64,000 nt of DNA, from assembly GCA_030650605.1 (NCBI GenBank), contig JAUSDP010000100.1:16383-80382 (forward strand). Direction: 5' to 3'. Positions 1-55,682 of this stretch are shown in pieces. Numbering within the stretch: the stretch's first letter is position 1; every line of letters starts with the position of its first letter. The notes under the pieces are model-generated. The model worked only from the letters and a program-made list of their open reading frames with translations. It made no database searches and was not told where the DNA came from. Origin of the DNA: a bacterium. Its GTDB lineage: Bacteria > Patescibacteriota > Minisyncoccia > Phycocordibacterales > Zambryskibacteraceae. Position numbers and translations under genes: made by a program.

Positions 1-33
1 GATATAAATTAAGCTTTAAAAGAAAGTAATTTT

Positions 34-1116
34 ATGATCACTACAGAAAGTCAACAAAAAGACGATTTGAAACTTCTATACCTTTTGGTACGTATTAATC
101 GTTTTTCATCGTATCGCCAAGTGAAAGAAGCGTACGAAGCCGTAGTCAAGAAAACCGAAAAGGACTACGCGTTTATCTTCAATAAAAAGGAGCGTGAAGT
201 TGAAATTCGCAATGCTCTGAATAAGTACATTACAGAAGAAATGCGTGAGTTTGAAGACCATGCGTTGGTTAAGCAGTATTACGCGCAAAAAGATCTGGAA
301 AATGAACTGCATAGTCGTAATGATTTTGAAAAACAACGTGACGAGATAAAACGATTTGATGAAATGCAAAAGGATCGTAAGAGCGAGGACGCACGAGATA
401 AAAAGTCAGAAAGAATTAAAGAAGAAATGACTGATGAACTCAAGTCAAATCAAAATCAAAAAATCTCCAAAACCGAAATTAAAGCCCAGGACATCAAAGG
501 CTTTACAGCCGTTGTCCTAAAAAATGGAATCGAGTACAGGAATGCTGAAGATAAATCTCTAGCTTTTGTGGATTCAGGCGCTCGCATAAAAATAGTGATG
601 TCAAAGAATGAAGCATCACGCCATGCAGCATTAAAGCTGGCATCGGAGAATTTCAATGACGGCTTCGTCTTTAAAGGAAGCGATGAAAAGAAGCGTCAGC
701 TTGCGAAAGACTGTGTTGCGTTGAACCTCGAGGACAAAATTAAAAATCCAGAGCTGAAAGAATTCATTGCGCAGCAGGTTAAAGAACGTGATTTGATAAA
801 TGGAAGAGATGCAGCCAAAGCCAGCGTTCAAGAGACAGTAAAAGAAGACGCGGTAAGTGAACTGAAATCTAAAGTCGAGCAAGTAAATGAAGTCTCGAAG
901 CAAGAGCGCGAAGTTGAACAAGTCTCTGAAAAAATTTCACTACCTGAACAAAAGAAAGAGCAAATTACAGCGTCCGATTCGACCCCTGAAAACTCGACAG
1001 TGCAAACAAATGGATTTGTATTCGATACAGCCAAATTACGCGAAATGGATCCAGCGAGAACGCAAGTGCAAGAAAATCAAAAACATCGCGAACAAGAACA
1101 AGAAATTGAACGATAA
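34..1116 (+). CDS. Hypothetical Lys/Glu-rich (coiled-coil-like) protein, 360 aa
   Basis: Long ORF with highly charged K/E-rich low-complexity composition and an ATG at 34 preceded by a purine-rich stretch. No recognisable catalytic motif. Confidence 0.4.
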   Translation: MITTESQQKDDLKLLYLLVRINRFSSYRQVKEAYEAVVKKTEKDYAFIFNKKEREVEIRNALNKYITEEMREFEDHALVKQYYAQKDLENELHSRNDFEKQRDEIKRFDEMQKDRKSEDARDKKSERIKEEMTDELKSNQNQKISKTEIKAQDIKGFTAVVLKNGIEYRNAEDKSLAFVDSGARIKIVMSKNEASRHAALKLASENFNDGFVFKGSDEKKRQLAKDCVALNLEDKIKNPELKEFIAQQVKERDLINGRDAAKASVQETVKEDAVSELKSKVEQVNEVSKQEREVEQVSEKISLPEQKKEQITASDSTPENSTVQTNGFVFDTAKLREMDPARTQVQENQKHREQEQEIER

Positions 1117-1331
1117 CATCAATCTCACCAAGGAATGAAAATGAATGCAAGCGAAATCTATGGCGTTAAGGCCGCAAAAAAAGTTCAAGCGGAAAATGTA
1201 AAACTTTGGGGTACGACTCAGGTAATAGAAAACCTACGTCTTGCACCGGCCGCAATTGCCAATATTCGTGCTCTTGAAAAAGAACGTGACCTCGAATTGC
1301 AAAAAGAAAAGACACCTCAGCGAGAACTGTA

Positions 1332-1673
1332 ATGAGAAAACTCATACTCATCATTTTGTTGGCCTTGAGTTTTCAGGCGACAGCTGGCATTAAGTTATCC
1401 AAGCCTGCTGCACCGGTTACTACGCCGACTGTGGCGCCCTCTTCAGTTCCCGCTTCGGCGGTTGCAGTGTCTACGCCAGAGCCAACCACAAAGCCAGAAG
1501 TAACTCCAGAAGCAAAGACTGAGAAAACATCAAAGGCAAGTGTTCCAACTGGTGAGAAGAAAGTAAAACAAGCCGCAAGTAAGCGTACAAAATCTGCAAT
1601 CAGAAACACTACTCAATACAAAGAGCAAGTGACCTACCTGAAAGCTGGCGCAACAATTTGGGGACAACACTAA
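1332..1673 (+). CDS. Secreted Pro/Thr/Ala-rich low-complexity protein
   Basis: N-terminal signal-peptide-like hydrophobic segment (MRKLILIILLALSFQATA), followed by a PTVAPSSVPASAV...PEPTTKPEVTPE linker-like sequence. Confidence 0.35.
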   Translation: MRKLILIILLALSFQATAGIKLSKPAAPVTTPTVAPSSVPASAVAVSTPEPTTKPEVTPEAKTEKTSKASVPTGEKKVKQAASKRTKSAIRNTTQYKEQVTYLKAGATIWGQH

Positions 1674-1977
1674 TGGTTAGCAAATCCGTTCTTGCCGCCG
1701 TTAAAGCACACGACCACGAGTATCCGAATCCAATTTTGGCGGGTCTGGCAGTTGGCAACGCTTTAAGAGAAAAAGTTAGACAAAGGAACGAAAGTGAAGG
1801 TGCTCAACAGCATTCGCAACTTGTCGCCAGGTGCGAGTCGCACAACGAAAAGACCCACAACGAGGAATTGTCGAAAGGCCTTGCGATAACAACTGAGAAG
1901 AAGCAAAACGCAGAAACGCGTAGCGCTAATGCAAATCAAAAAACACAATCTACCTTCGAACCATCGCCTTAGAAAGC

Positions 1978-2595
1978 ATGATCATGTTCAAATTAACAAA
2001 ACTGATATCAGCTATGTGCGTAATTGCCACAATTACTGGCTGTGCAGAAATGAAGAACCTTCAATCTGCGGCCAGCCAACTGCCACAAACGGCATCGAAG
2101 GCTTATCGCAATATCGTACCTGCAGAACCGCCCGAGCTCATTCGATTGCGCGAGGTATCAAAGGAAGATGACTCCATTTTGAATGCGCTCAATATGGTGA
2201 ACAAAGAGCATCCTGAACTCTCAAAACAAAAACTCTTGTGCGGTGGCACTTCGGATCCAGTTGAATTCAAATCGCAATCATATTCCTGGTCACCAGTACA
2301 GAAATTTCAGCTTTTTTGTACGTTGCCTGAAGACGTTCTTCGAGAGCGTGATACCGATTTGATAGCATATTCAAAAGCCATGGCAACTTATGCTGTTAAG
2401 CGTGGATCCAGAGAGCTTACTGGATTCGCAGTTCAAGCCCGCACAAAAGAGGATGCAGCCTTTCTCGAGACCGCTGTGGCATCCATCCTCAAAAATAAAG
2501 GGGTCCATTTAAATGTATTGGTCAACCCAAATGCCATGCCAACTTTGGCCATTCTGTCGCCAGGTCTGATCAAGCGCACTGTACGAGATCAGTAA
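1978..2595 (+). CDS. Putative lipoprotein, 205 aa
   Basis: Signal peptide ending in a lipobox-like ITGC (MIMFKLTKLISAMCVIATITGC). No catalytic motif recognised. Confidence 0.4.
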   Translation: MIMFKLTKLISAMCVIATITGCAEMKNLQSAASQLPQTASKAYRNIVPAEPPELIRLREVSKEDDSILNALNMVNKEHPELSKQKLLCGGTSDPVEFKSQSYSWSPVQKFQLFCTLPEDVLRERDTDLIAYSKAMATYAVKRGSRELTGFAVQARTKEDAAFLETAVASILKNKGVHLNVLVNPNAMPTLAILSPGLIKRTVRDQ

Positions 2596-2596
2596 A

Positions 2597-3271
2597 ATGA
2601 CACCAGAAATGACGAAATCAAGAAACACGCGAACGCGCGTACAGGTGTCGCCAATGATCACTCGAGCTGGTTCCGAATCGATTCGGGATTACAAGTTCTT
2701 AGCATCGCATCCAGACGTGCATTGCAATTCGGTTAGTGAATTTTCAAATATCGTCATTCGAGAATTCATCGATGCCAAGCCGTGGATGCAAACGTCTTGG
2801 AAATGGCAGATATCTCGGGCGAGCGAACGGATGTCAGGGAATACTGGCTGCCCACAATTTAATTTCATGGTATCAAACGACATTGAATTCGCTGTAAAAA
2901 ACGTGACGTCACGATTAATCATTGAAGCCGAAAAGGCTGCATGGAAGCAGACACTCGGCAATGGGGAAATCTCTTTTAACGATATCGAGACGCGCGTGAA
3001 TGCTAAGCTGGTATTACTGCAATCGAAAAGCAATTGCTTGGACACTGAAATAGAAGCGACATCGTGGAAGTATGTGCGATTGCATGATGACACCGTTGAT
3101 GCCATCATGAACGTTACCAAGCGACGTGTCTCATCTCTTCTTTCGAGCCAACAAAAGAATGGCTATGTTTGCAAAAATATTAGTGGATTCCTGCTCAGTG
3201 CGATGACATGGGCAACTCGTGGCGACAGTAGATTTTCGAAAATACTTAAACAGAGCTTGCGACAACAATGA
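2597..3271 (+). CDS. Hypothetical protein, 224 aa, translationally coupled to the downstream HAD-like gene
   Basis: ORF overlaps the next gene by 4 nt (ATGA-type coupling). No recognisable domain. Confidence 0.4.
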   Translation: MTPEMTKSRNTRTRVQVSPMITRAGSESIRDYKFLASHPDVHCNSVSEFSNIVIREFIDAKPWMQTSWKWQISRASERMSGNTGCPQFNFMVSNDIEFAVKNVTSRLIIEAEKAAWKQTLGNGEISFNDIETRVNAKLVLLQSKSNCLDTEIEATSWKYVRLHDDTVDAIMNVTKRRVSSLLSSQQKNGYVCKNISGFLLSAMTWATRGDSRFSKILKQSLRQQ

Positions 3272-3714
3272 TTGTATTCCTTGATATTGATGGTGTGCTG
3301 CATCCGGATCCCTGCTATGACAGAGACCTGCTACTTTCATGCTTGCCGAAGTTTGAGTCCGTGATCCGTGAGTTCCCAGGAGTTGAAATCGTAATAAGTA
3401 GCACCTGGCGTGAGAAAAGATCACTCACAGAATTGAGGGATCTTTTCTCACCCGATATCGCGCAAAGAATTATAGGAGTGACGCCCAGCTGGAAGGATCA
3501 TCAGGGCATTTTTAATAGAATTGGCTACCAACGTCATGCCGAAGTCGAAGCATGGCTGCGTGGGTCCTCAGAGCCATGGCGACGATGGGTGGCAATTGAT
3601 GACAAGCCATATTTGTTTCGACCATTTTCAAATCTCGTAAAGACCAAATCTGAGGTTGGATTCGATGATTTAAGTGAAATCGCACTACGCGATAAGCTAT
3701 CTGAAGCTGATTAG
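3268..3714 (+). CDS. Small HAD-superfamily hydrolase (phosphatase/5'-nucleotidase-like), paralog of 8593..9012
   Basis: N-terminal MIVFLDIDGVLH matches HAD motif I (DxDGV). The downstream ISSTWRE segment is shared with the paralog 8593..9012 (MIIFLDFDGVLH ... VISSSWRE). Confidence 0.55.
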   Translation: MIVFLDIDGVLHPDPCYDRDLLLSCLPKFESVIREFPGVEIVISSTWREKRSLTELRDLFSPDIAQRIIGVTPSWKDHQGIFNRIGYQRHAEVEAWLRGSSEPWRRWVAIDDKPYLFRPFSNLVKTKSEVGFDDLSEIALRDKLSEAD

Positions 3715-4019
3715 TTATCCACAAATTCTGTGTATAAGTTCAGTAAAAGCCATATGGGATCTAGCTGTTATCGTTAAATTAAAAATTAAGCAAAATGGTG
3801 CTTCTTTGTGCATAAACACTCGGTATGCTAAAGTCGGGAGGATATTTAAGTGCATTGAAAATTTAATGACGTAGTGAAAGCTGTACCGATCATTTGTCAT
3901 AGCTCTTTAAATCGAATCATCTACCTTTTGGCATGAGCTCGTAAAGTGCGCATTCCTTTTTTACCTACTCGCGTCTTCTGCCAAAGAGACGGCGCTCATT
4001 CATCGGTTTCTAAAATCCA

Positions 4020-6917
4020 ATGCCAGGAATTACAACTAGAATGCAGATTGGTCGCCTTCACGAAATGAAGGGACTCCCTATAAGAACACGCAATCAGGTA
4101 AGAGCCATCCTCGCAGTCGACAGCGACGTATCATTGAAACTCCTAAATCAACTTCGGGTCGAGAAGTCGGCAGGAGAACTACTTCAAATAGAACGAGTTT
4201 TACGCTACGATTTTTTGAAAACCATCCCAATGGTCCCAGATCTCTTCCCTGAATTCCCACAGACGGGTGAAGAATATGATCGACTGGCTAAAATAGATAT
4301 TGCCAAAGAGATTGAAATACTCGATCTTTTGACGTTGCGATGGCATGAGAAACTTGTTTTGCTCCTTGCGGCTATGCGGCGCCTTGACTCGGCAATTACG
4401 ATGAGAAACTTCAACGAAGGTTCTGTTCTTGTTGGCCAGATATATGCTGAATTTGGTTACAGTCATTTTCTTATTCGTAAAGCAGCTTTACTTTATACCC
4501 ATGCTGCAGGAATTACGGCAATACCTGAAGTTGACTCGATTCTGAGCGAGGCAGGACTCGATAACAAAAATATCGCAATGTCCTCGCTTATCCATTGCTT
4601 TAAAGAGGAGCAGGACTTTCTCAGTTTGAAGCGCTCGATAATGAATTTGCCCCAAAGAGGTATTGCTAATAAATTTACGAGGGATGTGTGTCGACTCCCG
4701 TTTCATCCGTTCGCGAAGGATGCCGCTGACTTTGGTGAACTTCTACAAAGTTGGCGCCAATCGTCGCTTATCGATGCAATTATTGGTGCCAAGGTGAACG
4801 TCCATTTAGTGGAGGCTGAAAATGGACGTTCAGTAAATCTGCGGGCATTGTTCGCTCATATAGATTCAAACGCATTGTCCATCGATCGCATCTTATCTAT
4901 CTACGATCTGGAGGATCCGGATAGCGAGACAACATTCTACAAGCAATCGAGTGCTTGGCTAGAAAATGCATGCATAGTTAAGTATCGCACGCTCGTCGAC
5001 CATTTTTACAATTTTCCGGAGTCTGACTATTTTGAATTTAATCAGGAATTGATCGCAAGAATTGCCAATTGGGCTGCCCCAATTGACTTGGCGGTACTCG
5101 CTACCACTTCTAAACTTTCTCACACTGATTCTGCGAGCATGATGGCCCTTGAGAGCCTTGGAACAGTGACGCGATCAGCGATGTTTAACTTCTCAGTATT
5201 TAATGTCGAAGGGTATGCAAAAATCAGTGAGACAGAATTGTTATCATTGATGGGTAGCACTAGAGATTTGGCGAAAACAATTAACCACAAATTTCTAAGT
5301 AATATGGCAAAAATGTCAACGTCGAAGTTGTCGCGTCTGATACTCTATTTTTTAATTGCAAAAAAGAGCAAAAACGAACTCGATGATCACCAGCTAAGGC
5401 GAATTTTCCAGGGGATTGTCCTAACAGAACACAATGGAAGCATAGTAGAACTGTTTGATGCTTTAAGTAAGATGTCACGAGTTGTAGCTGAGTATGCGTA
5501 TGAGATTTGCACAGAGGACTTCATCGCAAAATTATTTCATATCATAAAAACATCTTCCGAAATCACTGAAACGCGAGCTAGTCTACATAAGTGGATGGGG
5601 AAACTTACTGGGGAAAAGGCGTACCTAGACCGTGCCAGGACTCTTTTGATCGACCACCAACTAAACAAAATTCGTAACGAGATCGATGACAACCGCATCT
5701 ATGTGGACGCAGCCCGATTTGCAGAGTGGATGAACGATGAGGTAGGGCGCGACTTGAACGGCATCTTGACAAGTATTGAACACAAAAGCGCATTACTAGA
5801 AGCTGCGGATCCTCAGCTCATGGCTATTGTGGAGCGATGCTATGTCAACTTTTGTTCAAATAAGATTTTTGGCATCGCTTCATATTTGGGGCGACGTATC
5901 CGTCATGGAACGTTCAAGGGGCACTTGTTTTCGAACGTTGTTTCCATCGAGAGAAAGAAGGAATATGAATATCTTCTTTCAGATCCAGTAGTCGCCTCGA
6001 AGTGGGTACGTTGGAAAGCCGATTACGAGAAGATTATCGATGAGATAATCGTTAGTCGCCTGCATATCGAATCGCCAGGCAAGCGCGAGGGGCTATTAAA
6101 ACCTAGCGTTAATACTGCATTGAAGCTAGAAACGCTTTCAGCGTGTGCGAGAAACATCGCCCGAGACTTTTCTGAATCAAATAGCTCGTTTGGTGCGATC
6201 CCCATCATCACCGAATATTGCTGGCGTTTGGCTGAACATGATTTGAAGGATATCAACGGGTATTTGAAGAGTAAAAAGGCGGCGTTGATAAACACTGACC
6301 TTTTAACAGATTTGAAATCGTGTGTTTACGGTTCAAACTTGGGTGTCGCTCGTGATTTTTGTCGGGAACTTGTTCGCCTTATTGACGACAAGTTATTGTC
6401 AATGTACAACTGGTTCAAAAAACCTGCGAACGTTTCGCCGCAAGCGTCATTATCACTACTATATAAAGCAGTCGTAGCAGAGGTGCGCGAGGCATTTCCC
6501 GAATTTGACACGAGCACTGATTTTGACGATGCCAGAGATATTAAACTAGTTGGTGGTGCGTACCATGTTCTGTACGACTCATTCTATGTCATTGTTTATA
6601 ACGCAGCGAAGCATGGCAAGGCAGGCGAGGAACTTGAGCGGAATTTCGAGCTCATTGATGATACCGTTGAGCGGCGAAAAATGCTGAACATTAATGTCAC
6701 GTCGCTGATTAAGGACAACGAAAGCGAGGACTATGTTAGGAGTAGACTCGTCTTGGATAGGACACAAGATCTTGATGATGCTCAGGTCTCAGAGGATCGG
6801 AGTGGAATCCGAAAATTGTATTTCCTGGAGCATTGGAATCGAGATTTTTGTATCGGTGATATTTATTGTCGAAATCGTAAAGTAACTGTGAACCTAACCC
6901 ATGCTTTGGAACACTGA
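4020..6917 (+). CDS. dtcA: Detocs DtcA-like sensor histidine-kinase-like protein, 965 aa
   Basis: Large N-terminal region without known domain. C-terminus carries a histidine-kinase ATPase N-box-like motif (VIVYNAAKHGKAGEE). Stop overlaps the start of the next gene (TGATG). The gene order matches the Detocs three-gene architecture. Confidence 0.55.
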   Translation: MPGITTRMQIGRLHEMKGLPIRTRNQVRAILAVDSDVSLKLLNQLRVEKSAGELLQIERVLRYDFLKTIPMVPDLFPEFPQTGEEYDRLAKIDIAKEIEILDLLTLRWHEKLVLLLAAMRRLDSAITMRNFNEGSVLVGQIYAEFGYSHFLIRKAALLYTHAAGITAIPEVDSILSEAGLDNKNIAMSSLIHCFKEEQDFLSLKRSIMNLPQRGIANKFTRDVCRLPFHPFAKDAADFGELLQSWRQSSLIDAIIGAKVNVHLVEAENGRSVNLRALFAHIDSNALSIDRILSIYDLEDPDSETTFYKQSSAWLENACIVKYRTLVDHFYNFPESDYFEFNQELIARIANWAAPIDLAVLATTSKLSHTDSASMMALESLGTVTRSAMFNFSVFNVEGYAKISETELLSLMGSTRDLAKTINHKFLSNMAKMSTSKLSRLILYFLIAKKSKNELDDHQLRRIFQGIVLTEHNGSIVELFDALSKMSRVVAEYAYEICTEDFIAKLFHIIKTSSEITETRASLHKWMGKLTGEKAYLDRARTLLIDHQLNKIRNEIDDNRIYVDAARFAEWMNDEVGRDLNGILTSIEHKSALLEAADPQLMAIVERCYVNFCSNKIFGIASYLGRRIRHGTFKGHLFSNVVSIERKKEYEYLLSDPVVASKWVRWKADYEKIIDEIIVSRLHIESPGKREGLLKPSVNTALKLETLSACARNIARDFSESNSSFGAIPIITEYCWRLAEHDLKDINGYLKSKKAALINTDLLTDLKSCVYGSNLGVARDFCRELVRLIDDKLLSMYNWFKKPANVSPQASLSLLYKAVVAEVREAFPEFDTSTDFDDARDIKLVGGAYHVLYDSFYVIVYNAAKHGKAGEELERNFELIDDTVERRKMLNINVTSLIKDNESEDYVRSRLVLDRTQDLDDAQVSEDRSGIRKLYFLEHWNRDFCIGDIYCRNRKVTVNLTHALEH

Positions 6918-7366
6918 TGAAAAACGTTCTGATTATTGAAGACGATAGCTTCAAAAGCGATAATCTCGCGACTTTTCTGAAGGCAAATATAGGAAATGCG
7001 AATATTTCGCTTGCTTCAGACGTTGCGAGCGGCGTTTCGGCTGTCGAACGAAAAATATTTGACCTAATAATAATTGACATGGCCTTGCCAAGCCACCCTG
7101 TGGTGTCTGGAGGAGGCGCGCCAATGTCTTTACTAAGTGGTGGGTTGGAAATTCTATTTGAACTACGCTCGCTCGATCGTACTGATTTTTGCATCATAGT
7201 CACTCAATATCCAGAAGTGGAAATCTCGGGAAATTACTTTCCGGTTGAAAAAGCAGCGGCAGCTATTAAGACTCATTTTGACTGTGATGTCGGGGCATGC
7301 ATAGAATACGCCGAAGCATCTAATGCCTGGAAATTCGAGTTAATAAACTTAATTAAAAACATATGA
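6917..7366 (+). CDS. dtcB: Detocs DtcB-like stand-alone receiver (response-regulator receiver domain only), 149 aa
   Basis: MKNVLIIEDD ... DLIIIDMALP is a CheY-like receiver with the phospho-acceptor Asp context. There is no output domain. It is coupled to both neighbouring genes. Confidence 0.6.
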   Translation: MKNVLIIEDDSFKSDNLATFLKANIGNANISLASDVASGVSAVERKIFDLIIIDMALPSHPVVSGGGAPMSLLSGGLEILFELRSLDRTDFCIIVTQYPEVEISGNYFPVEKAAAAIKTHFDCDVGACIEYAEASNAWKFELINLIKNI

Positions 7367-8580
7367 AGATTCTTGTACTCGAAGACGACTCAACTAAAAG
7401 TGAGCTCGTCAAAGCAGAGATATCCAGCGTAGACCTTGCTGTCAGCGTTGAGATTGTTAGTAATTTACGTGACTACACGATAAAGGTGGGGCAAAACGTT
7501 TACGATCTGATCATAGTTGATCTCGTCGTTCCGCAGTTTCCATTTGACGCCCAGGCGATCGACGTAACTGGTCAAATTATTGACATTACCAGAGACCAGG
7601 ACTGTCTGAATTTTCGCTCTCCGGTTCTCGCACTCACACGATACAACGAAAAGGCTGAGGCGCAATTCGAAGATCTCAACCGAAAAGACATAACGATCGT
7701 TACGTTCGATGAGGATTCTGGACGTTGGAAAGAGAGTATTCGTGAAAAGGTCCGCAGTTGCGAACCTCCGGTTCACTACCCGTTTGTGATAATTTGTGCG
7801 CTGGCCAAGGAGGCTGACGCATACGCTGCGGCCGGTTATCAAGTCGGGGAGCGCCAAACAATAAAAGGTCTAGCTTGCAGAGAGATTTCAATCGGATTAG
7901 TAGTAGGGGTAATTATTACGGCGCCAAGAATGGGATTGGTTAGCTCTGCTATAACCAGTACCCAAGCGATAGAGGCATTTAAACCTAAATTAATTTGCAT
8001 GAGTGGGATTTGTGGAGGAGTTCCGGAAAAAACAAAGATATACGATGTTGTGATACCAGATATCTGTCACCAAAACGATTCCGGAAAATGGACGAACGCT
8101 GGCTTTGAATCTGAAGGGTACAGTGTACAGCTTGAGCATGGTATGAAATTAAAGATAGACGAGCTCATATCAAAGCCTGCCTTTCTTGAAACGGTGAAGC
8201 GTGACGTGATCCTTCGACGTGCCGAATTCCCTGAAGGAGCTGACGTACTAGATTTCAAAATTATTATTGCACCTACTTCTAGTGGCAGTGCGGTCATTGC
8301 CGATAAGGAAATGGTAGAAATTCTTAAAGAGCAACACAGAAAACTATCAGCCTTCGAAATGGAATCTTTTGCTGTCTTCGAGGCTGCCCGTTTGGCGCCG
8401 ACAAAACCCCAGTATTTCAGCGCAAAGGCAGTTGTCGATGATGGATCTCCAAGCAAAGGTGATCTCTTCCATAGGGTGGCGTGTATTCTTTCTGCGAAAG
8501 TAGTCTATGAATGCATTAAGTCCGGCTTGCTTCTAAGCGGAGGGGTAAGTCTCGAAACAAAACGGGGGAACATCAGTTAA
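7363..8580 (+). CDS. dtcC: Detocs DtcC-like effector: N-terminal receiver domain fused to a purine nucleoside phosphorylase (PNP_UDP_1-like) domain, 405 aa
   Basis: N-terminus MKILVLEDD ... YDLIIVDLVVP is receiver-like. The C-terminal half has a PNP/MTA-nucleosidase-like glycine-rich loop (MSGICGGVP) and the hallmark EMES motif (SAFEMESFAVFEAA). 4-nt overlap with dtcB. Confidence 0.65.
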   Translation: MKILVLEDDSTKSELVKAEISSVDLAVSVEIVSNLRDYTIKVGQNVYDLIIVDLVVPQFPFDAQAIDVTGQIIDITRDQDCLNFRSPVLALTRYNEKAEAQFEDLNRKDITIVTFDEDSGRWKESIREKVRSCEPPVHYPFVIICALAKEADAYAAAGYQVGERQTIKGLACREISIGLVVGVIITAPRMGLVSSAITSTQAIEAFKPKLICMSGICGGVPEKTKIYDVVIPDICHQNDSGKWTNAGFESEGYSVQLEHGMKLKIDELISKPAFLETVKRDVILRRAEFPEGADVLDFKIIIAPTSSGSAVIADKEMVEILKEQHRKLSAFEMESFAVFEAARLAPTKPQYFSAKAVVDDGSPSKGDLFHRVACILSAKVVYECIKSGLLLSGGVSLETKRGNIS

Positions 8581-8592
8581 GGCGAAAGTGAT

Positions 8593-9012
8593 TTAACTTG
8601 CTAAAATTTTTCTCAGTTTAAGCTCTATGATTTCGTCAAGGCCTGAATTTGACTGACATAGCAATAAGTGTGGACATCCATCAGGAAACTCGGCATGTGC
8701 ATCATCAATAGCAAGCCAGGGTCCACCATAATGATTTAGAGTTATCCAGGCTAAAATTTCTTCATAGCGCGAATATGGTGGTTTACCGTCACCATTGGGC
8801 GTCATGCCAAGGATTCTATCCTGAATATCTTCCGAAAATAGTCCCCAAATAACTTCAGAAGGATAGGCCTCGCGCCAGGATGAGGAAATTACGACCATCA
8901 GAGAGGGAAATTCTCGAAGAATATTTTCAAACCTCGTTAAATGATAAAAATGGCCACGTTCTCCAGCTGGCGATGAATGCAAGACACCATCAAAATCCAG
9001 AAAGATGATCAT
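8593..9012 (-). CDS. Small HAD-superfamily hydrolase, paralog of 3268..3714, coupled to the hipA-like gene
   Basis: MIIFLDFDGVLH (HAD motif I) and VISSSWRE. The start overlaps the HipA-like stop by 4 nt. Confidence 0.55.
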   Translation of the reverse strand: MIIFLDFDGVLHSSPAGERGHFYHLTRFENILREFPSLMVVISSSWREAYPSEVIWGLFSEDIQDRILGMTPNGDGKPPYSRYEEILAWITLNHYGGPWLAIDDAHAEFPDGCPHLLLCQSNSGLDEIIELKLRKILAS

Positions 9013-10352
9013 CGCCGCAATTCCTTAAGCTGATTTATTTGATTCTGAATTGCATAATACCGGGCTCCAATAATATCGCTATCAACTCCTTGTTCCGCCA
9101 TCACATCCGATAGCCCTTCAATTTTGGACCCAAAAATTCGTAATGCATCGGTCACAGTCGCAAGCTCATCTGGATCCAGTTCCAATGACGCCAGCACGTC
9201 AGCCCAGTTGGTAATCTCTGTTTTGCCACGTTTCCATCTCAGTGCCCGGGCAATGCCTTCTTTATCTAGATTCATCGGGGCGAAATCAAATAATGGTGTC
9301 AGCTGCACCCGACCATTCACAATCTGGACAGCAGTATTTCTTGCATGGTTATCTGTGTTGCCCATGGCCAGATTGAGCACATCACGCTTTATGAACTCAA
9401 TGGTAGCAGCAGTTTTATCGGTGACATGCAAACGTATTGCCGCCAATAGATCATTTTGTGACGGTCTCTGATCAAAGCCAATCTGGCCAACCAACGAGGC
9501 GCCACTTTCTTGATGGCGCCGTTCTATGCCTGATTCCGTCACCAACCTATCGAAGCGCGGGATAAATAGCATATCCGCATGCCATTCGGGAAGCTCATCA
9601 ACAGCGAGCCCCAGAGCTTTCGTTGTACGCATAAATGCAGCTTCATTTTTGAGGATTTTCAAATCAGATGGGTCCCGTCCGCGCGAAAGCTTAACTAGAT
9701 AATGCTTCTTTGCGTGGGCATCAGGAATGGCACCATCAAGATAAAACAAATCATCTTTACCTAGCGTCAGCATGAATTTTGGTGCCACGCCTTGCAGGCC
9801 TGTGGTGCCGGCAGTGAGCATATTGTGACCAAAGATATTTTCAAGAAATTCATCCTTGCGCTCCAGGATGTCTTGAAGCTTGAATCCACGTTTTGTCAAC
9901 TCATCTTGACGCTCTGGATGGACCTCATAAAAACGTGCGGACTCTCTTACTCGTAACCTGCCTATTGGATTGATTGCGCCGGCACAAAGGAGCTGCCAGT
10001 CTGCTGAGGGGCCATCTTGCAGGTTGAGTTCGCCCAGGAGATATTTGCGTCCTTTGCCCTGCGGAATGAGATCAAATAGAAAAGATGGCCAGCGGTCTAA
10101 ATGTGTGGAATTCCTACTGACTGGAATGCGAAGAGATGCCGGAGAATTCTTGTAGTTGTGCACAAATTCAGAATCATAAGTTATCCGTGATGCACCGGTA
10201 CCGCCCAAGGCCGGTTTATCGATTTCGATAGTGCAGCATTCCCTCCACTGGCCATCAATATGAATTTCGAATTCGCATGTGTTCATAAACGTAGATTCAT
10301 GAATTTTGAGTTCGTGGATCAACGGAGCAGCCAACCAAAAATTAGTGTCCAT
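9009..10352 (-). CDS. hipA: HipA-family serine/threonine kinase toxin-like protein, 447 aa
   Basis: C-terminal HipA catalytic-loop signature GNTDNHARNTAV (GNxDxHxxN). The overall length and N-terminal region are consistent with full-length HipA. Confidence 0.7.
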   Translation of the reverse strand: MDTNFWLAAPLIHELKIHESTFMNTCEFEIHIDGQWRECCTIEIDKPALGGTGASRITYDSEFVHNYKNSPASLRIPVSRNSTHLDRWPSFLFDLIPQGKGRKYLLGELNLQDGPSADWQLLCAGAINPIGRLRVRESARFYEVHPERQDELTKRGFKLQDILERKDEFLENIFGHNMLTAGTTGLQGVAPKFMLTLGKDDLFYLDGAIPDAHAKKHYLVKLSRGRDPSDLKILKNEAAFMRTTKALGLAVDELPEWHADMLFIPRFDRLVTESGIERRHQESGASLVGQIGFDQRPSQNDLLAAIRLHVTDKTAATIEFIKRDVLNLAMGNTDNHARNTAVQIVNGRVQLTPLFDFAPMNLDKEGIARALRWKRGKTEITNWADVLASLELDPDELATVTDALRIFGSKIEGLSDVMAEQGVDSDIIGARYYAIQNQINQLKELRR

Positions 10353-10382
10353 TCAAATCTTCGATACACCATGAACCACATT

Positions 10383-10730
10383 TTATGTTTTGTAAGTTGC
10401 ATTGATTCCGTTGGCAGAGAGTACCAATAATATCTCAGACACATCTTTTCCCTGATCGGTATTAGGTACACTTTTCCCAAATTGTATTTTGGGATCTTGG
10501 TTTGCTTCAAGAATTACCGTGCGATTTCTCTCTGAAGTTAAATGAAGAACCAATGGGTCAGAATTTGGATCGTTGGCTTGTCTATCAACCAAATACTTTA
10601 AAGCAGAATGTACTGTTGAAATTTCAGACGTTTTCCATAATTTGATGAACACCTGTGTTTTATTGAGGCCCCTGTTCGAATCAGACAAATATTCGTATAG
10701 AGGGACATCTGGCGCCGTCGTTTTATCCAT
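10383..10730 (-). CDS. Hypothetical protein upstream of hipA-like gene (sits where HipB would be, but has no obvious HTH)
   Basis: 115-aa ORF 30 bp upstream of the HipA-like gene. No XRE-type helix-turn-helix detected. Confidence 0.35.
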   Translation of the reverse strand: MDKTTAPDVPLYEYLSDSNRGLNKTQVFIKLWKTSEISTVHSALKYLVDRQANDPNSDPLVLHLTSERNRTVILEANQDPKIQFGKSVPNTDQGKDVSEILLVLSANGINATYKT

Positions 10731-10735
10731 TATTC

Positions 10736-10936
10736 CTATCTCGGGTTGTAACCAGCTTCGACCAGTGCATTAGCGATCTTGTCGCATCCATCTCGCATTA
10801 AATATGCTTCTTCGTCATCCACTGCGTTTTGACGCCACTCCGAAAATCCGACACGCTTCAAAAATTGTGCTAGAGCTTGTGCTTCTTCGTCAGACAAAAG
10901 TGCTGTGATAGTTACCATAAGTTTTTCCTCTTTCAA
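10736..10936 (-). CDS. Small hypothetical protein, 66 aa
   Basis: Short ORF immediately upstream of and co-oriented with 10383..10730. Confidence 0.3.
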   Translation of the reverse strand: MKEEKLMVTITALLSDEEAQALAQFLKRVGFSEWRQNAVDDEEAYLMRDGCDKIANALVEAGYNPR

Positions 10937-11014
10937 TTAAATCTGCTTGCGATATTCATGGGGCATTAAGGTAGTTCATGGCTGGTTTTCTCGGCCATCA
11001 TCTACTGGGAGTAA

Positions 11015-11785
11015 TTATTGTTTAATTTTCCAGAAGACTTCAGCAACGCCTTTTGAAACACGCAATGCTACAAAGAACATTAATAAAAGAGGCCAAGTCC
11101 GGGTTCTTTGACTCCAATCTTCAGTGTCTTTTTTATCCAACATGACTGGAAGTTGAAGTACATAAGCTACTGTGTTGGCCTTCATACACCCGTAAACTCG
11201 AGTATGGCTGTAACCACTCGGCAATGCCACAGATAGGTCAATTGGAAACGGAGGGCAGGCAGCATTTAGCAGGGAAGCATCAATGATTCCATGACTCGAT
11301 AAGGCAGTGATAAGTACAGCCAATCGCCCGCATCCTTTTGCCTCTGTAGGTTGCTGCTCATTGCATTCTTCGTTTGCGGCCAATTTGAGCAGTTGAATGG
11401 CATCGTTACGGCTTTCTGACCATTGGCGTTCTATGCGCGCCCTAGATTCGTCAGCGGACACGACGAACAATTGAATAATAGCGAACACCACACCAATTGC
11501 GGATGCAGATACCCACAATAGATCGATAACTTTGAGATGAAAGGAAGTAATGCGCCTTGAAGCGATGCCCACAATCGAAGACAAGGTCACGATCGTGACA
11601 AGCATGTTTGTTGCAGCCCATTTACTTACTTGCATTACAGGGGCATCAATTCCAGGAAGACGCATGAAGCAGTAATACATTCCCGCAAGACCAATAAATG
11701 CTCCAAAGTAAGCCAGCTTTATTCTTGACGGCAATATTGACCACTGTGTAAACGATCTCTTAGCGAATTGAATTCCGTTGGCCAA
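11015..11785 (-). CDS. Integral membrane protein, 256 aa
   Basis: Several hydrophobic helices (e.g. LAYFGAFIGLAGMYYCF, NMLVTIVTLSSIVGIA, LLWVSASAIGVVFAIIQLFVV). Confidence 0.45.
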   Translation of the reverse strand: MANGIQFAKRSFTQWSILPSRIKLAYFGAFIGLAGMYYCFMRLPGIDAPVMQVSKWAATNMLVTIVTLSSIVGIASRRITSFHLKVIDLLWVSASAIGVVFAIIQLFVVSADESRARIERQWSESRNDAIQLLKLAANEECNEQQPTEAKGCGRLAVLITALSSHGIIDASLLNAACPPFPIDLSVALPSGYSHTRVYGCMKANTVAYVLQLPVMLDKKDTEDWSQRTRTWPLLLMFFVALRVSKGVAEVFWKIKQ

Positions 11786-11880
11786 CTTGGACTCCTTTGA
11801 TTTATTAAGTTACGAAAATAATTTCGCTGAGCTGAAATGTTAATCGCATTTAGAACTCTTGCGTAAGGGATTCTGAAATT

Positions 11881-14800
11881 CTACATTTCGCGACCGTAAT
11901 ACTTTTCCTTTTCTCTCTCTCTTACTGGCTCAATTTTTACGACTTCAATCTCTTTGATTTTTGTCTTCTCTACTTCTGGTTCCGCTAAATTGATTGCAAA
12001 TTCTTTGAGTGCTTCCTTATTATTTTTTGTTGCCCACAGCGTGTCCTGGAGAGCTTGTAGACCACCCTTTTCATTCGTAATCCTGATGTCCAAATTGTTT
12101 TCAACTATCAATTCGATTACCTGCTTTTTAAATTTAGGCGAGCCCATTAGGCCGATTTCGGGACCAATAGTTTCTCGGGCAGACTTCAATTGCTCAAGCA
12201 AGGAAGGTGGTTTAGAAAATTGTCCCGTTATAAGATCCTTTTCAGGCCGAATATATTCACATCGAGTTTTAGAATTCCATGCATCATTTCCATTTACAAA
12301 TGCGGACTTTAAAAGAATCGGTTTCTCGTCATTTAATCTTTTCGCTAGCTCTTCTTTTGTGGGTTCAATCGCTCGATCGTGCACAAGTTTTACGCCGACT
12401 TCCAAAAACGTTTTTTCTACATCTTCAACATTGCGAGCGTCAGTAAATAGCACAACAGATCGCGGCCCCATTACTGATCGCGTGGAGTTTGTGTATATCG
12501 AGTTGTAATCGCCCCGGTCCTTTCTTGGGACGTACATTAGAACTTGAGCGCGGTTGCTTATTGTGGGATCCTCTTTAGTCCCATCGGGATTACTAAAAAT
12601 TTTTGTTGAAGCTGTCCCGCCCTGGCTTGAGTGACCAGTTGCACTGTAGCCCCATCGAATAGAAAGTCCTCTACCTTGGTCGGGCAAAGGTACTTTGATA
12701 ATTTTACTTGTGCTCACAATTTTTACGGTAGCAATTCGCTTTTCAAAATCAATATTTTCAACGATTCCTCTATCGCCATTAAGTATTCCTAATTTTTCAT
12801 TTGCCGCAGTAAAACGAATGCGTTCACCAGGACAAATCTTAATGCGTTCCTCAACGCCCAGCGAGACACCAGCGCTTTGCGTCATCGGAGAATAGTCGTA
12901 TTCGACAGTTTTAGGGTTGAGTCCATTTTTATCAGTAATTGTGCGTGCAAGCTTAACGATGGATCCTTCTACGCGTAAAACTTCGCACGCTTCACCTTTT
13001 TGGAATGGTGAATGTGGAGAATTCATATTAAAAAATACAGTGCTGCCTGACTCGTATTGCGCAGGATTCCGCAAGTCTTGAGTCGTCAGATTTCCGAACC
13101 GTTCAAATGAATTGATTTCTAATCCACGAGTTTTTTCGATTCCAATTTTTTCACGGATGGCGATATTTAACAGTCTCCGATCTTCATTTGTTTTCGTGAT
13201 GCAGAAAGTGTTATCTCGTGCTGCTTCAGTGAGTTCGTTGTAATACGTTGCCATTTCTTTTAAGCATTCGTCTTCTGTGTTCCTCACCACAATTCGATTT
13301 TTCTCACTCATATAAACCAGTCCTTCTGCCGGACTTTTAAAGCATAAACTATGAATTTTAATTGTCTCCTGATCTTTTCCCCGTTGCATTTCGGTGAGCT
13401 CTTTAAATGCATTTTCTGATGGATTGCCTCTTATAAAATCCGAAACATGTTTTAACGGTGCTCCGGCGCCCACGGAGTGATACTGATCATAATCTCCTGA
13501 AAGAATTATTCGACACTGGTGCTCGTTTGCTTTTTCTAAAAGTTCCAACATAGATCGAGCATCAACTAAACCTGCCTCATCAATAATTACAATCGAACCC
13601 TTTTGGATATTCTCTTCCCACCATTTTTCACTGAGCGCAGCCTTTTGGGTGGTTATTACATGAGGAAAATATGTATCCATCCCTGATCCATTAGTTTTCT
13701 CCCTAAGATACACAGAGTCAGCAAGTGCTTCCTTGGCTTTCCCAGACGGTGCCTGGCCAAACACGCGAACCCGAGAGGCCTCTGCGCAGCGCTGTAAAAG
13801 ATCCATCGATGTGCTCTTGCCAGTGCCAGCGCGACCAAGAACAACTGAAATCCCAGAGGTAGTAGTGAGCGCCATGTAGGTAGCTTCCTTCTGCCCCTTA
13901 CTAAGTTTGAAACCTTTTTCTGCTTCATATTGCAACACAATGGCATCAAACAATGCCCGGTCGCAAACCGGTTTAAAACGAGCGAAATTTTCTTTTACTA
14001 GTCTCTCAATTTTTTGTTCGCACTCGACCAGCTCGCGAGTAGTGAGTGAGCGACCATCGTTTTGCATAATGAGTTCACCTGAGAGTATTTTCTCCTCAAT
14101 TTTTTGTTGGAGAATCTCTGGCTCCAGTTGATAGAGTCCTTCTTTCAACATTTGTGTAAGCAGGGCTTCTTTGCTGCGTATCGTCGAAATTCTCTCAGTG
14201 AGACCTTGAGAAGCCATTTGATAGGCCAGCTCGGGCGTTCGCTTCTCCAACCTATGTGCTCGCCCATATTCTTGTGCGAGCTCAACTCGTTTTCGAAGAT
14301 CCTCTATAAAGACTGGATGGAGTTCTTTGTTCAGCGGATTCTCAGCCTTATATTTCCACCATGCTTGAGCGGCCGCCAATCCCGTGGCGGCATCATTAAT
14401 TGGATCGTCAAACGCACTGAAATCGAAAGAATCTTTGCCGCCGCGAGAGGCAGCATTTGCGGTATCTCGATCATGCTTGCTATTTATATCGAGATAGATA
14501 CCGTGCTTAGGATGAGATGGGTCTTCTCGTAATTTGTTCTGGGAAGAGATCCATTCTGGAATTCTCAGAGAGGAGCCGTCCGCGAAGACTTCGATGTCGT
14601 TCCTGGAGAAACCAGATAATTCATAGCCGTCCTTGGTATCATAAAATACGTAACCTTTATCTTCCAGAAAGAGACGTTCGGCTGTTTTTCCGATTGCATC
14701 AAGCAAGTGCTGGTTTTCATAAACTTTACCGAATGCGATGGCCCTTAAACTGCCAGCGCAATCTACAGTGTGCGTAGCTCTAGTGGAGTGAGAATGAATT

Positions 14801-15603
14801 TGTGGATCCAAGCCTCCATCGCCCTTTTCGTTTGGCCTGGATACAGTGTGCATGCACTGCACCCACATCATATTGTCGCCTTTGACCATCCATACATCTT
14901 TTTTGGGATCCACCAATTTAAGTACAGGAACATCAACTCCTGCTTCCTGGCATGCTTTGATTTCAGTGCCTGTCATTCTGTACTCAAGCAAGTATTTCTC
15001 TGTGAATTCAGCTATAGCGGTATCGCCGGCAAGGTGGCCTTTCAAGAAGTTTTCATCGTCAAACACGAGACCTTGCACTGACAAAGACTTTGAATTCGCC
15101 CAATTTCCTTCGAAGCCAATCGTAGAATTTCGTGTTTTTTTAGCGTTTTCTTTGAACGCATTGAGGTCCTTTTTTTGTGCATCTGTGAACGATTTTAGTG
15201 CTTTCTTTTGCTGGCTTTTGAACTCAGTTTTATCGATATTGGAGAGATTTTGATTTCGCAAAAAGCGATCTTTTGTTTTCTCTTGGGCGTTCACAAACTC
15301 TGCTTTTGCTAACTTATGTATGAGCTTCTGTTTCGCCAGGTCTTCATTGGGGCCTCTTTTATAGTCGCGCCTGGTAACTTGCAGCTCCGGTGAATCACCG
15401 AATTTTCCATCGAGAATTTCTGAAAAACGCTCTTCTGAATACTTTGCAAAGCGATCTCCTCCAAGTTTTTCAAGCATTTTTCCTTTAAATTGGTTGGCAT
15501 AATCAGCATGATCTCCTTCCCGATATTTCTGTTGATAGTTATCTGATTTCCTATAACTAGCTATTTGACTCGAGTTGCCAGCAAGTGCATTTTCTGTGTA
15601 CAT
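11881..15603 (-). CDS. traI: MOBF-family conjugative relaxase-helicase (TrwC/TraI-like), 1240 aa
   Basis: N-terminal Tyr-rich relaxase motif I (SYRKSDNYQQKYREGDHADYANQFKGK...LG, matching the TrwC YY...WxG pattern). 3-His motif III (LDPQIHSHSTRATH). Internal Walker A (VVLGRAGTGKST) of the TraI/RecD-like helicase domain. A K-rich insertion separates motif I from motif III. Confidence 0.85.
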   Translation of the reverse strand: MYTENALAGNSSQIASYRKSDNYQQKYREGDHADYANQFKGKMLEKLGGDRFAKYSEERFSEILDGKFGDSPELQVTRRDYKRGPNEDLAKQKLIHKLAKAEFVNAQEKTKDRFLRNQNLSNIDKTEFKSQQKKALKSFTDAQKKDLNAFKENAKKTRNSTIGFEGNWANSKSLSVQGLVFDDENFLKGHLAGDTAIAEFTEKYLLEYRMTGTEIKACQEAGVDVPVLKLVDPKKDVWMVKGDNMMWVQCMHTVSRPNEKGDGGLDPQIHSHSTRATHTVDCAGSLRAIAFGKVYENQHLLDAIGKTAERLFLEDKGYVFYDTKDGYELSGFSRNDIEVFADGSSLRIPEWISSQNKLREDPSHPKHGIYLDINSKHDRDTANAASRGGKDSFDFSAFDDPINDAATGLAAAQAWWKYKAENPLNKELHPVFIEDLRKRVELAQEYGRAHRLEKRTPELAYQMASQGLTERISTIRSKEALLTQMLKEGLYQLEPEILQQKIEEKILSGELIMQNDGRSLTTRELVECEQKIERLVKENFARFKPVCDRALFDAIVLQYEAEKGFKLSKGQKEATYMALTTTSGISVVLGRAGTGKSTSMDLLQRCAEASRVRVFGQAPSGKAKEALADSVYLREKTNGSGMDTYFPHVITTQKAALSEKWWEENIQKGSIVIIDEAGLVDARSMLELLEKANEHQCRIILSGDYDQYHSVGAGAPLKHVSDFIRGNPSENAFKELTEMQRGKDQETIKIHSLCFKSPAEGLVYMSEKNRIVVRNTEDECLKEMATYYNELTEAARDNTFCITKTNEDRRLLNIAIREKIGIEKTRGLEINSFERFGNLTTQDLRNPAQYESGSTVFFNMNSPHSPFQKGEACEVLRVEGSIVKLARTITDKNGLNPKTVEYDYSPMTQSAGVSLGVEERIKICPGERIRFTAANEKLGILNGDRGIVENIDFEKRIATVKIVSTSKIIKVPLPDQGRGLSIRWGYSATGHSSQGGTASTKIFSNPDGTKEDPTISNRAQVLMYVPRKDRGDYNSIYTNSTRSVMGPRSVVLFTDARNVEDVEKTFLEVGVKLVHDRAIEPTKEELAKRLNDEKPILLKSAFVNGNDAWNSKTRCEYIRPEKDLITGQFSKPPSLLEQLKSARETIGPEIGLMGSPKFKKQVIELIVENNLDIRITNEKGGLQALQDTLWATKNNKEALKEFAINLAEPEVEKTKIKEIEVVKIEPVREREKEKYYGREM

Positions 15604-54933: not shown

Positions 54934-55682
54934 TTGGAAACCATCTTTTCTCTATGTTGTTGACGTTGTGCATCCTGTTCACCAGGCCTTATGATTTCGA
55001 TTTCCCATGTCTCGGTATCCAAAGACGTGATGCCTCGCAGACCCACGCCATAGGGCCGGAATCCTTCCTGCGCTGGATACTTTAAGCTGTCGTGTTGATG
55101 GCCGTGGAATGATTTTAGAAGCCGTTGGTTGCCGATACCTAAGTTGCGGGCGAGGTCACTGATCAAATCGGATCCATACGGATGGGCCCCTGGCGCGTCG
55201 TGCGTAATCAGGACATCCGCGCGTTCACCAATCAGGCCGAAATACTCATTTGGGAAAATGGTACTGCGATGTTTAAGCGGCAGCCCACCACGCCAATGAT
55301 TACCTTTTCCACATTTCTTAAGGTATTCGGCCGGTGATTCGAATTCAGGATTGTCCTGGGGCATCCATACCTTCGATCTGAATACTCCTCCGAGTCCAGC
55401 AATACGGATTCCGGCGATTTCGACAACGCGTGAATGTAGATTTCTATCTGAAAGTTTTGAGTGGAATAGGTTGTCGTAATCTGACTCAGAGTCCGTGTCG
55501 TGATTTCCAGGGATCCACCAGATTTCAGTTAGTGAGATGATCTCGACTAGTTCAATTTCTAGCGATCGCAGCGCCTGTTGATCACCCAATAAAATGACAG
55601 CTGCCGGCCTGTGGTCTCTCACAGCTTTGATGATGTGATTAAAGTGGCCGTGAGGATCGCCACAGAAAAAGATTGTGCCCAT
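54930..55682 (-). CDS. Calcineurin-like metallophosphoesterase, 250 aa (paralog 3 of 4)
   Basis: CGDPHGH, LLGDQ, IPGNHD, LITHDAP and HGHQHDS. Confidence 0.65.
   Translation of the reverse strand: MGTIFFCGDPHGHFNHIIKAVRDHRPAAVILLGDQQALRSLEIELVEIISLTEIWWIPGNHDTDSESDYDNLFHSKLSDRNLHSRVVEIAGIRIAGLGGVFRSKVWMPQDNPEFESPAEYLKKCGKGNHWRGGLPLKHRSTIFPNEYFGLIGERADVLITHDAPGAHPYGSDLISDLARNLGIGNQRLLKSFHGHQHDSLKYPAQEGFRPYGVGLRGITSLDTETWEIEIIRPGEQDAQRQQHREKMVSK

Follow-up and report, generated by a model that had tools for sequence, protein, structure and literature searches.

Characterised HipA kinases phosphorylate an aminoacyl-tRNA synthetase, and to our knowledge the recovery of cells from HipA-induced dormancy is not fully understood. 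Ten gene organisations have been listed for Hip kinases, including the reversed hipAB and hipEB orders, and a phosphatase is never mentioned among them (Gerdes et al. 2021, PMC8262856). In the KKP system of Pf prophages, a PP2C phosphatase is the antitoxin to toxic Hanks-type kinases, and the system also functions in phage defence (PMC11341870). A "Swiss-army-knife" (SAK) HAD has been predicted computationally to act on its own as a phosphatase that removes linear phosphates from RNA ends (PMC7824862), and Detocs has been described as a three-gene system made up of a sensor kinase, a receiver that stands alone, and a second receiver to which the effector PNP is fused (bioRxiv 10.1101/2023.01.24.525353). 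Here, we describe a 64,000-nucleotide stretch of DNA (positions 16,383 to 80,382 of contig JAUSDP010000100.1, assembly GCA_030650605.1; hereafter the window), which is part of a Rep_3/MobF plasmid. In this plasmid, the gene of a HipA-family kinase is directly followed by a gene for a small HAD_SAK_2 protein (HAD-R), and a paralogous gene (HAD-L) lies in inverted orientation on the other side of a Detocs locus. From its gene position, HAD-R is predicted to be a phosphatase that counteracts HipA and has taken over the neutralising role of HipB; we put the probability of this reading at roughly 0.45.

The kinase gene and the two HAD genes are as follows (coordinates are those of the window).

9009..10286, minus strand: HipA-family Ser/Thr kinase, 425 amino acids (aa) from M23, with Pfam matches to HipA_C and Couple_hipA; the open reading frame (ORF) extends to 10352 (447 aa)

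8593..9012, minus strand: HAD-R, a 139-aa HAD_SAK_2 phosphatase-like protein (Pfam E=4.3e-25), downstream of hipA, in the antitoxin slot

3268..3714, plus strand: HAD-L, a 148-aa HAD_SAK_2 phosphatase-like protein (Pfam E=1.1e-28), the last gene of the left operon

The kinase matches HipA_C (2.1e-28, 99.9 bits) and Couple_hipA (6.5e-06, 27 bits), both above the cut-off, and its catalytic motifs, D312-N-H-A-R-N317 and F333-D334-F335, are invariant in an alignment of relatives. Two sibling plasmids, L083 and L084, were recovered via HipA homologues, and the ratio of non-synonymous to synonymous divergence (pN/pS) was computed on codon alignments against both; for hipA it is 0.23-0.24. With invariant catalytic motifs and purifying selection, the kinase looks active. 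Translation of hipA most likely starts at 10286 (M23) and not at 10352, because homologues align with no more than 94-95% of the long ORF and the homology with L083 stops 3 nucleotides (nt) upstream of the M23 ATG.

The position of HAD-R becomes meaningful when the relatives of this kinase are compared. In all four HipA relatives of 68, 61, 60 and 51% identity, an HTH_3 (helix-turn-helix, HTH) gene overlaps hipA by 8 nt or stands 2 nt behind it. A metagenome scan added 80 HipA loci. Of the 88 non-sibling loci, 78 have room downstream of hipA. A conserved HTH protein (MDKRRK...LTQxEFAxHRG) is encoded directly behind hipA in approximately 76 of these 78, at -29 to +18 nt relative to the hipA stop; of the other two, L114 is an orphan hipA and L100 is dubious. 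A HAD gene behind hipA was found in the sibling plasmids only and in none of the 88 non-sibling loci. A profile built from 67 HTH partners detected no HipB-like HTH gene in the first 16 kb of the window (1-16 kb), in L083 or in L084. In a distance tree, a pair with HTH genes forms the sister group of the HAD-bearing HipA clade, which lies nested within lineages that carry the HTH; HAD-R therefore took the place of the HTH gene in the common ancestor of these plasmids. Judged from these comparisons of sequence and gene order, the kinase is a member of the reversed-order hipA-hipB family whose HTH gene has been lost in this plasmid lineage, with HAD-R translationally coupled in the same slot. 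The initial annotation had reported a HAD gene coupled to a HipA-like kinase on the right-hand side; the pair proves to be real and persistent, having been kept across a divergence of pS ~0.2-0.35, and the HAD gene sits exactly in a HipB-type slot. A 115-aa protein encoded upstream of hipA was also considered as a necessary HipA antitoxin and was rejected: L083 lacks its gene, and in that plasmid hipA-HAD comes directly after the relaxase gene.

Both small proteins belong to Pfam family PF18143 (HAD_SAK_2), with scores of 100.8 bits for HAD-L and 89.1 bits for HAD-R against a cut-off of 27.5, and profile positions 1-136 of 139 are covered. They had been taken to be homologous without being recent duplicates, and this holds: HAD-L and HAD-R are 39% identical over their full length (BLASTP, E=3e-27), and their DNA is recognisably similar over the first 36 nt only (78%), so the duplication is not a recent one. 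The pair therefore goes back to an old duplication or to separate acquisition of two copies. The reported 4-nt overlaps with the upstream genes likewise hold. The sequence ATGA is present at both junctions, where the start of each HAD gene overlaps the stop of the gene before it by 4 nt; neither ORF has an in-frame start farther upstream, each opening at the first start codon past a stop; and homologues of both share the start M-I-[ILV]-F-L-D, in which Asp6 and Asp8 form HAD motif I. The start codons are thus fixed, and the overlaps are no artefacts.

The catalytic apparatus was scored as motifs I (DxD), II (S/T), III (K/R) and IV (DD). In a 16-sequence alignment consisting of HAD-L, HAD-R and 14 homologues, D6, D8, S44/S45, R48/R67/R89 and D111/D112 are invariant. 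The pN/pS values are 0.06-0.10 for HAD-L and 0.12-0.16 for HAD-R, and all four genes of the two modules (the 224-aa gene upstream of HAD-L, HAD-L, HAD-R and hipA) are under purifying selection (pN/pS 0.06-0.30, with pS up to 0.43); consequently, the divergence of the modules between siblings reflects imported alleles and not decay. An AlphaFold2 (AF2) model of HAD-L has a predicted local distance difference test score (pLDDT) of 95.5, and the protein is too small to hold a cap domain. The best PDB matches of the model are weak and comprise SCP/FCP protein Ser-phosphatases and the T4 PNKP phosphatase, which are capless HADs acting on macromolecules. As a model-based comparison, this fits a phosphoprotein or a nucleic-acid substrate alike. 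Solo genes in Undibacterium and related genera encode proteins that share 60-70% identity with HAD-L. The HAD-L coding sequence also contains a strong hairpin at 3410..3451, with 18-nt arms that are 94% complementary and a 6-nt loop; the surrounding stretch, 3401-3600, has the lowest identity to L084 within the left module.

Genes of this HAD family also stand next to or close to HipA kinases in six further unrelated lineages. In Variovorax sp. OK212 (L061), the HTH gene is missing beside a HipA that shares 69% identity with HTH-bearing relatives, and the gene order is HAD-Metallophos-HAD-Metallophos, then HipA, then an SGNH hydrolase. The order hipB-hipA-HAD, with ~185 nt between the last two genes, occurs in three Acidovorax plasmids (the context was read for pACP3.2) and in a Gallionella metagenome-assembled genome (MAG), and HipA lies within 2-3 kb of a HAD gene in L041, L059 and L181. 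The HipAs found near HADs share 20-33% identity among themselves and with the window HipA, apart from the window and L061 kinases, which are 40% identical and belong to the same family; the HipA-HAD adjacencies are therefore independent. HipA is present within 6 kb in 4 of 80 HAD loci, about ten times the chance expectation, a rough figure that assumes a density of a few hipA copies per 5-7-Mb genome. Since both families favour mobile DNA, this co-localisation is suggestive and is not taken as proof. The locus L181 (696..12067) is an island that encodes a HAD-L relative (63%), AbiEii, NT5C, NAMPT together with a phosphoribosyl pyrophosphate (PRPP) synthetase (a NAD-rebuilding pair), NUDIX/NrtR and WYL, with an orphan HipA 2.3 kb downstream.

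In the mechanism that we favour, HAD-R would be a phosphatase of the capless HAD type whose phospho-substrate is a macromolecule. It would counter HipA either by stripping the phosphate from the HipA target or by acting on HipA itself, and HipA/HAD-R would constitute a kinase/phosphatase addiction or abortive-infection module beside the relaxase gene. HAD-L would be a paralogue that ends an operon containing an LPD7-domain gene, with nothing linking it to a toxin, and Detocs would be a passenger independent of both HADs.

Several points weigh against HAD-R as an antidote to HipA. The antagonism between the two proteins is deduced from gene position only. The absence of a HAD gene from the 88 other loci of the kinase subfamily means that the link is not general, and orphan HipAs with no adjacent partner exist (L114, L181), so a hipA gene can persist without a neighbouring antidote. 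The Acidovorax and Gallionella loci keep HipB, with the HAD gene ~185 nt away, and the HAD gene there may be a separate unit. As for the HAD family itself, its published predicted role is that of an RNA-end phosphatase (PMC7824862), and the genes most often found beside it encode metallophosphoesterases and RNase T-like exonucleases rather than kinases. Among the collected HADs, a set that was gathered with HAD-L as the query, none is more than 49% identical to HAD-R. Finally, both families have a preference for mobile elements and defence islands, and this by itself would raise the frequency of their co-localisation.

A broader reading extends the same idea to the whole family. HAD_SAK_2 proteins might be dedicated erasers of HipA phosphorylation, replacing HipB fully in this plasmid and acting as a third, resuscitation-type component in other lineages, namely the hipB-hipA-HAD loci and the HAD-Metallophos arrays followed by hipA. 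We regard this extension as rather unlikely. No dedicated phosphatase for HipA kinases was described in the literature searched.

The left-hand module was examined for a comparable pairing, and its upstream genes are the following.

2597..3271, plus strand: 224-aa ORFan, the upstream partner of HAD-L, intact in L083 and L084

34..1116, plus strand: LPD7-domain protein, 360 aa (Pfam PF18821), an early gene of the operon that ends in HAD-L

HAD-L is the seventh or a later gene, and the last, of a tightly packed operon that starts upstream of the LPD7 gene. The 224-aa protein has no match in Pfam, NCBIfam or PADLOC. In a search of 5.8 billion proteins and a HMMER search of 1.84 billion representatives, its sole homologue was P0241, which is 92% identical and is encoded by a sibling plasmid. 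The gene is conserved across the three sibling plasmids with a pN/pS of 0.22-0.30, and a single-sequence AF2 model of the protein is unusable (pLDDT 35). There is a weak hint of repeats of ~70 aa in this protein (residues 24-73 versus 81-127, z=2.8, one pair), and the motif D-x-x-x-x-A-x-x-N-V-T-x-R recurs. The nearest relatives of HAD-L outside the sibling plasmids are solo genes in defence or anti-defence islands, beside genes for WYL, NT5C, type I restriction-modification, NAMPT/PRPP synthetase and AbiEii. There is no sign that the 224-aa protein is toxic, or that it and HAD-L make up a module comparable to HipA-HAD. The initial annotation had proposed a conserved module of an effector plus a HAD protein, present in two versions. 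That proposal stands for the right-hand version, HipA-HAD in the HipB slot, and lacks support for the left-hand one, where the partner is an ORFan, the closest relatives of HAD-L elsewhere have no partner or differing partners, and the most frequent neighbours in the family are metallophosphoesterases and not toxins.

The distribution of HAD_SAK_2 at large leads to the main rival explanation of both genes, in which HAD-L and HAD-R are nucleic-acid-end phosphatases (RNA or DNA, 3'/2') of the SAK repair type. They would serve plasmid establishment or counter-defence, for example by healing RNA cut by host toxins, and would merely share operons with their neighbours; HipA would then be an orphan toxin held in check in another manner, such as by a chromosomal hipB, by low expression or by autophosphorylation. 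The Pfam assignment of both proteins to HAD_SAK_2 speaks for such a role, since its members are described as phosphatases that act alone on linear phosphates in RNA repair, although that role is itself a computational prediction (PMC7824862). Stand-alone HAD_SAK_2 proteins of 140-165 aa are common in Burkholderiales, and across the 80 HAD loci Metallophos is the commonest immediate neighbour (18 of 97 adjacent slots), followed by AAA ATPases, SIR2 and RNase_T/Rv2179c-like exonucleases, with Exo_endo_phos also present. The Metallophos, exonuclease, Exo_endo_phos and SIR2 neighbours would suit this explanation, as would plasmid contexts with a DNA/RNA non-specific endonuclease, a metallophosphoesterase and HU, and the location of HAD-L in the LPD7 operon. 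In addition, 1,969 PLSDB plasmids carry a relative, among them IncHI1B/IncFIB plasmids of Klebsiella and E. coli and virulence plasmids of Klebsiella; for 1,725 of the 1,969 the assigned type is conjugative. In the Tritonibacter scottomollicae plasmid NZ_CP136707.1 (L179 871..3588), a type IV secretion system (T4SS) coupling protein with a C-terminal HAD_SAK_2-like domain is encoded directly before a MobF relaxase, and the same match lies inside the coupling protein of a Leisingera plasmid, which hints at a conjugation-linked role. On the other hand, no RNA ligase, Pnk-type kinase or cyclic phosphodiesterase was found among the window neighbours of HAD-L or HAD-R. Nor does a nucleic-acid-end role explain the exact replacement of HipB at a coupled junction, or why two independent losses of HipB (in the window clade and in L061) both come with HADs in the operon. 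We consider it possible, yet doubtful, that this is the function of the two proteins.

Other members of the family occur in varied settings. An Xre_MbcA_ParS_C antitoxin-domain protein directly upstream of a HAD gene was counted in 3 cases among the 80 loci, which two follow-up scans did not locate. On the Diaphorobacter plasmid NZ_CP049911.1 (L175 1815..2764), an Xre/MbcA/ParS-type antitoxin gene is immediately followed by a HAD_SAK_2 gene, which occupies the usual position of the RES/ParT toxin. Arrays of HAD_SAK_2 paralogues comprise five copies in L077 (5201..12098) and three in L068 (6001..8517), each array spanning a few kb, and some of the copies overlap by 4 nt. A 200-aa relative in NZ_MW598242.1 (E. 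coli/Klebsiella IncFIB-IncHI1B; L173 6821..7423) lies downstream of thioredoxin-fold and DsbA genes and is a backbone gene of large enterobacterial plasmids. A literature search by the Pfam name HAD_SAK_2 returned no match.

Between the two HAD genes lies the cargo.

3793..8580, plus strand: exchangeable cargo cassette, here Detocs, with dtcA at 4020..6917, dtcB at 6917..7366 and dtcC at 7363..8580

The dtcA/B/C block matches the PADLOC profiles PDC-M60A (3e-14), PDC-M60B (1.5e-21) and PDC-M60C (5e-59). Pfam assigns Response_reg to dtcB and PNP_UDP_1 to dtcC, and the gene order is sensor kinase, standalone receiver and receiver-PNP fusion. By this predicted architecture, the block 4020..8580 matches Detocs, and PDC-M60 is equated with Detocs through the same architectural match. 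The sample of the slot consists of three elements with two cargo types. L084 has the same layout as the window, Detocs included. L083 aligns with window positions 1..3792 (94.8%), 8581..10289 (90.7%) and 11881..13248 (90.9%), and carries between its HAD genes a 2.8-kb cassette in place of the 4.8-kb Detocs block. This cassette (L083 3174..5998) encodes proteins of 81, 373, 176 and 221 aa, the last on the opposite strand. The 373-aa protein combines an HTH with Peptidase_M78, and its PADLOC match (3e-18) is RmrA, which is the antitoxin of RosmerTA; no family match was obtained for the 176-aa and 221-aa proteins. The cassette may thus be a RosmerTA-type system with an unrecognised toxin.

The junctions between L083 and the window are sharp, at 3792|3793, 78 nt past the HAD-L stop, and at 8580|8581, 12 nt past the HAD-R stop and right behind the dtcC stop codon. 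The window and L084 share 99.5-100% identity in the backbone and in Detocs (Detocs ~99.9%), whereas the modules at ~2400-3800 and ~8700-10300 are only 80-94% identical. The window, L083 and L084 form a three-way mosaic in which, depending on the segment, any two plasmids agree against the third, which points to repeated allelic recombination in and around the HAD modules. The region between the HADs is an exchangeable cargo slot, and its conserved arms are the ends of two convergent operons that are themselves reshuffled by homologous recombination. The earlier suggestion of a recombination hot spot, or of Detocs inserted between the modules, is borne out by the exchange of cargo at sharp junctions in L083 and by the mosaic flanks. 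Inverted repeats were also considered as transposon-like ends of Detocs and were rejected, as no inverted DNA repeats were found around it beyond the 36-nt coding similarity of the HAD 5' ends.

This pattern invites the view that there is no functional link at all, in that the HADs are hitch-hiking terminal genes whose conserved sequence acts chiefly to provide homology arms when cassettes are exchanged, and HAD-R landed behind hipA through the same recombination that deleted hipB. The heavy recombination falls precisely in the two HAD modules, with junctions 78 nt and 12 nt past the HAD stops; the arrays of 3-5 HAD copies (L068, L077) suggest mobile, duplicating cassettes; and the partners of HADs are very diverse. 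Such hitch-hiking is nevertheless improbable, considering that both HADs are subject to strong purifying selection and have retained all their catalytic residues, that the HipA-HAD pair has been kept through pS ~0.2-0.35, and that HipA and HAD co-occur in several unrelated HipA lineages. Moreover, HAD-L and HAD-R have no DNA homology usable for recombination with each other.

HAD proteins and receiver domains both use Asp-phosphate chemistry, and the HADs bracket Detocs in both the window and L084. It was considered whether they are Detocs accessories, for example draining phosphate from the phosphorelay or processing a ribose-triphosphate product. L083 has both HAD modules without Detocs, no homologue of DtcA, DtcB or DtcC was found in the 80 other HAD loci, and Detocs is described as a three-gene system (bioRxiv 10.1101/2023.01.24.525353). 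An accessory role is extremely improbable on these grounds, and it was rejected, the content of L083 and the lack of Dtc homologues in the 80 loci essentially excluding it. Because L083 keeps the HAD modules with other cargo and the 80 loci contain no Dtc homologue, we infer that Detocs is passenger cargo, functionally independent of either HAD.

The remaining plasmid genes near the right-hand module are listed below.

10290..11880, minus strand: variable block, with a 115-aa protein at 10383..10730, DUF7706 at 10736..10936 and a 256-aa protein at 11015..11785

11881..15603, minus strand: TrwC/MobF-type relaxase, 1240 aa (Pfam TrwC, AAA_30 and others)

The block 10290..11880 is missing from L083 (a gap in the blastn alignment), so that a second, smaller region of variability separates hipA from the relaxase gene; the block's 115-aa and 256-aa proteins have no match in Pfam, NCBIfam or PADLOC. 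The relaxase marks the element as conjugative or mobilisable. The source contig, 80.6 kb in length, encodes the TrwC/MobF relaxase, ParB_N proteins, an LPD7 protein, two Rep_3 initiators, an integrase and a second defence block. From the distribution of homologues, the plasmid host is betaproteobacterial, probably Oxalobacteraceae-like. A megablast search with 1900..11000 found no near-identical DNA in PLSDB plasmids or in complete E. coli genomes. The second defence-like block (27648..33734, minus strand) encodes a T5orf172/MUG113 protein of 456 aa, a DEAD/ResIII helicase of 703 aa and an MmeI-family restriction-modification enzyme of 926 aa, which carries all five MmeI domains. The two Rep_3 initiators, a DUF3701 tyrosine integrase and a 566-aa metallophosphoesterase are found among 40886..42094 (plus), 59661..60680 (minus), 35500..37569 (plus) and 55682..59084 (minus). 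The metallophosphoesterase gene adjoins that of a ParB_N protein; elsewhere, the HAD_SAK_2 family likewise has Metallophos as its most frequent neighbour.

HAD genes, HipA kinases, Detocs and defence hot spots each fall within known kinds. A HAD phosphatase in the HipB slot, a recurrent HipA-HAD neighbourhood and the base-pair definition of the cargo slot appear to be undescribed in the literature searched. Defence-cargo hot spots are variable slots between conserved backbone genes, for example in integrative and conjugative elements (ICEs) and P2/P4-like satellites. The slot described here resembles them in its conserved flanks, its sharp junctions and the differing anti-phage systems at the same position in siblings, and differs in that its flanks are an inverted paralogous gene pair and are highly mosaic, as seen in three siblings with two cargo types. 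It provides a clean plasmid example of defence cargo, with base-pair-resolved junctions and two anti-phage cassettes, and can guide the search for further cargo; Detocs is seen here to travel as a 4.8-kb cassette.

Compared with the HAD_SAK_2/SAK family of predicted RNA repair phosphatases (PF18143; PMC7824862), both HADs are alike in matching over their full length, in standing alone and in being carried by a mobile element, and the family is common on conjugative plasmids; unlike in that family's described setting, no RNA ligase or polynucleotide kinase is encoded alongside, and one of the two HADs occupies an antitoxin slot behind a protein kinase. With KKP (PMC11341870), the locus would share a toxic kinase with a co-encoded phosphatase as its antitoxin, carried by a mobile element, which is here predicted from the genes alone. 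KKP consists of two Hanks kinases and a PP2C enzyme with the phosphatase gene first, whereas the present pair combines a HipA-fold kinase with a HAD-fold phosphatase, so the likeness is at most an analogy of logic. The reversed hipAB and hipEB operons (PMC8262856) are a further counterpart. As in these, a kinase with HipA_C and Couple_hipA domains and intact catalytic motifs is encoded first, the second gene is translationally coupled to the kinase stop, and relatives at 39-68% identity share the layout; in contrast to them, the second gene encodes a HAD_SAK_2 phosphatase instead of an HTH protein, with no HipB-like gene nearby. A hipA operon with a HAD gene in the antitoxin's place, together with the independent adjacencies elsewhere, offers a directly testable candidate for an enzymatic antidote, and HipA-HAD would add an eleventh organisation to the ten catalogued for Hip kinases.

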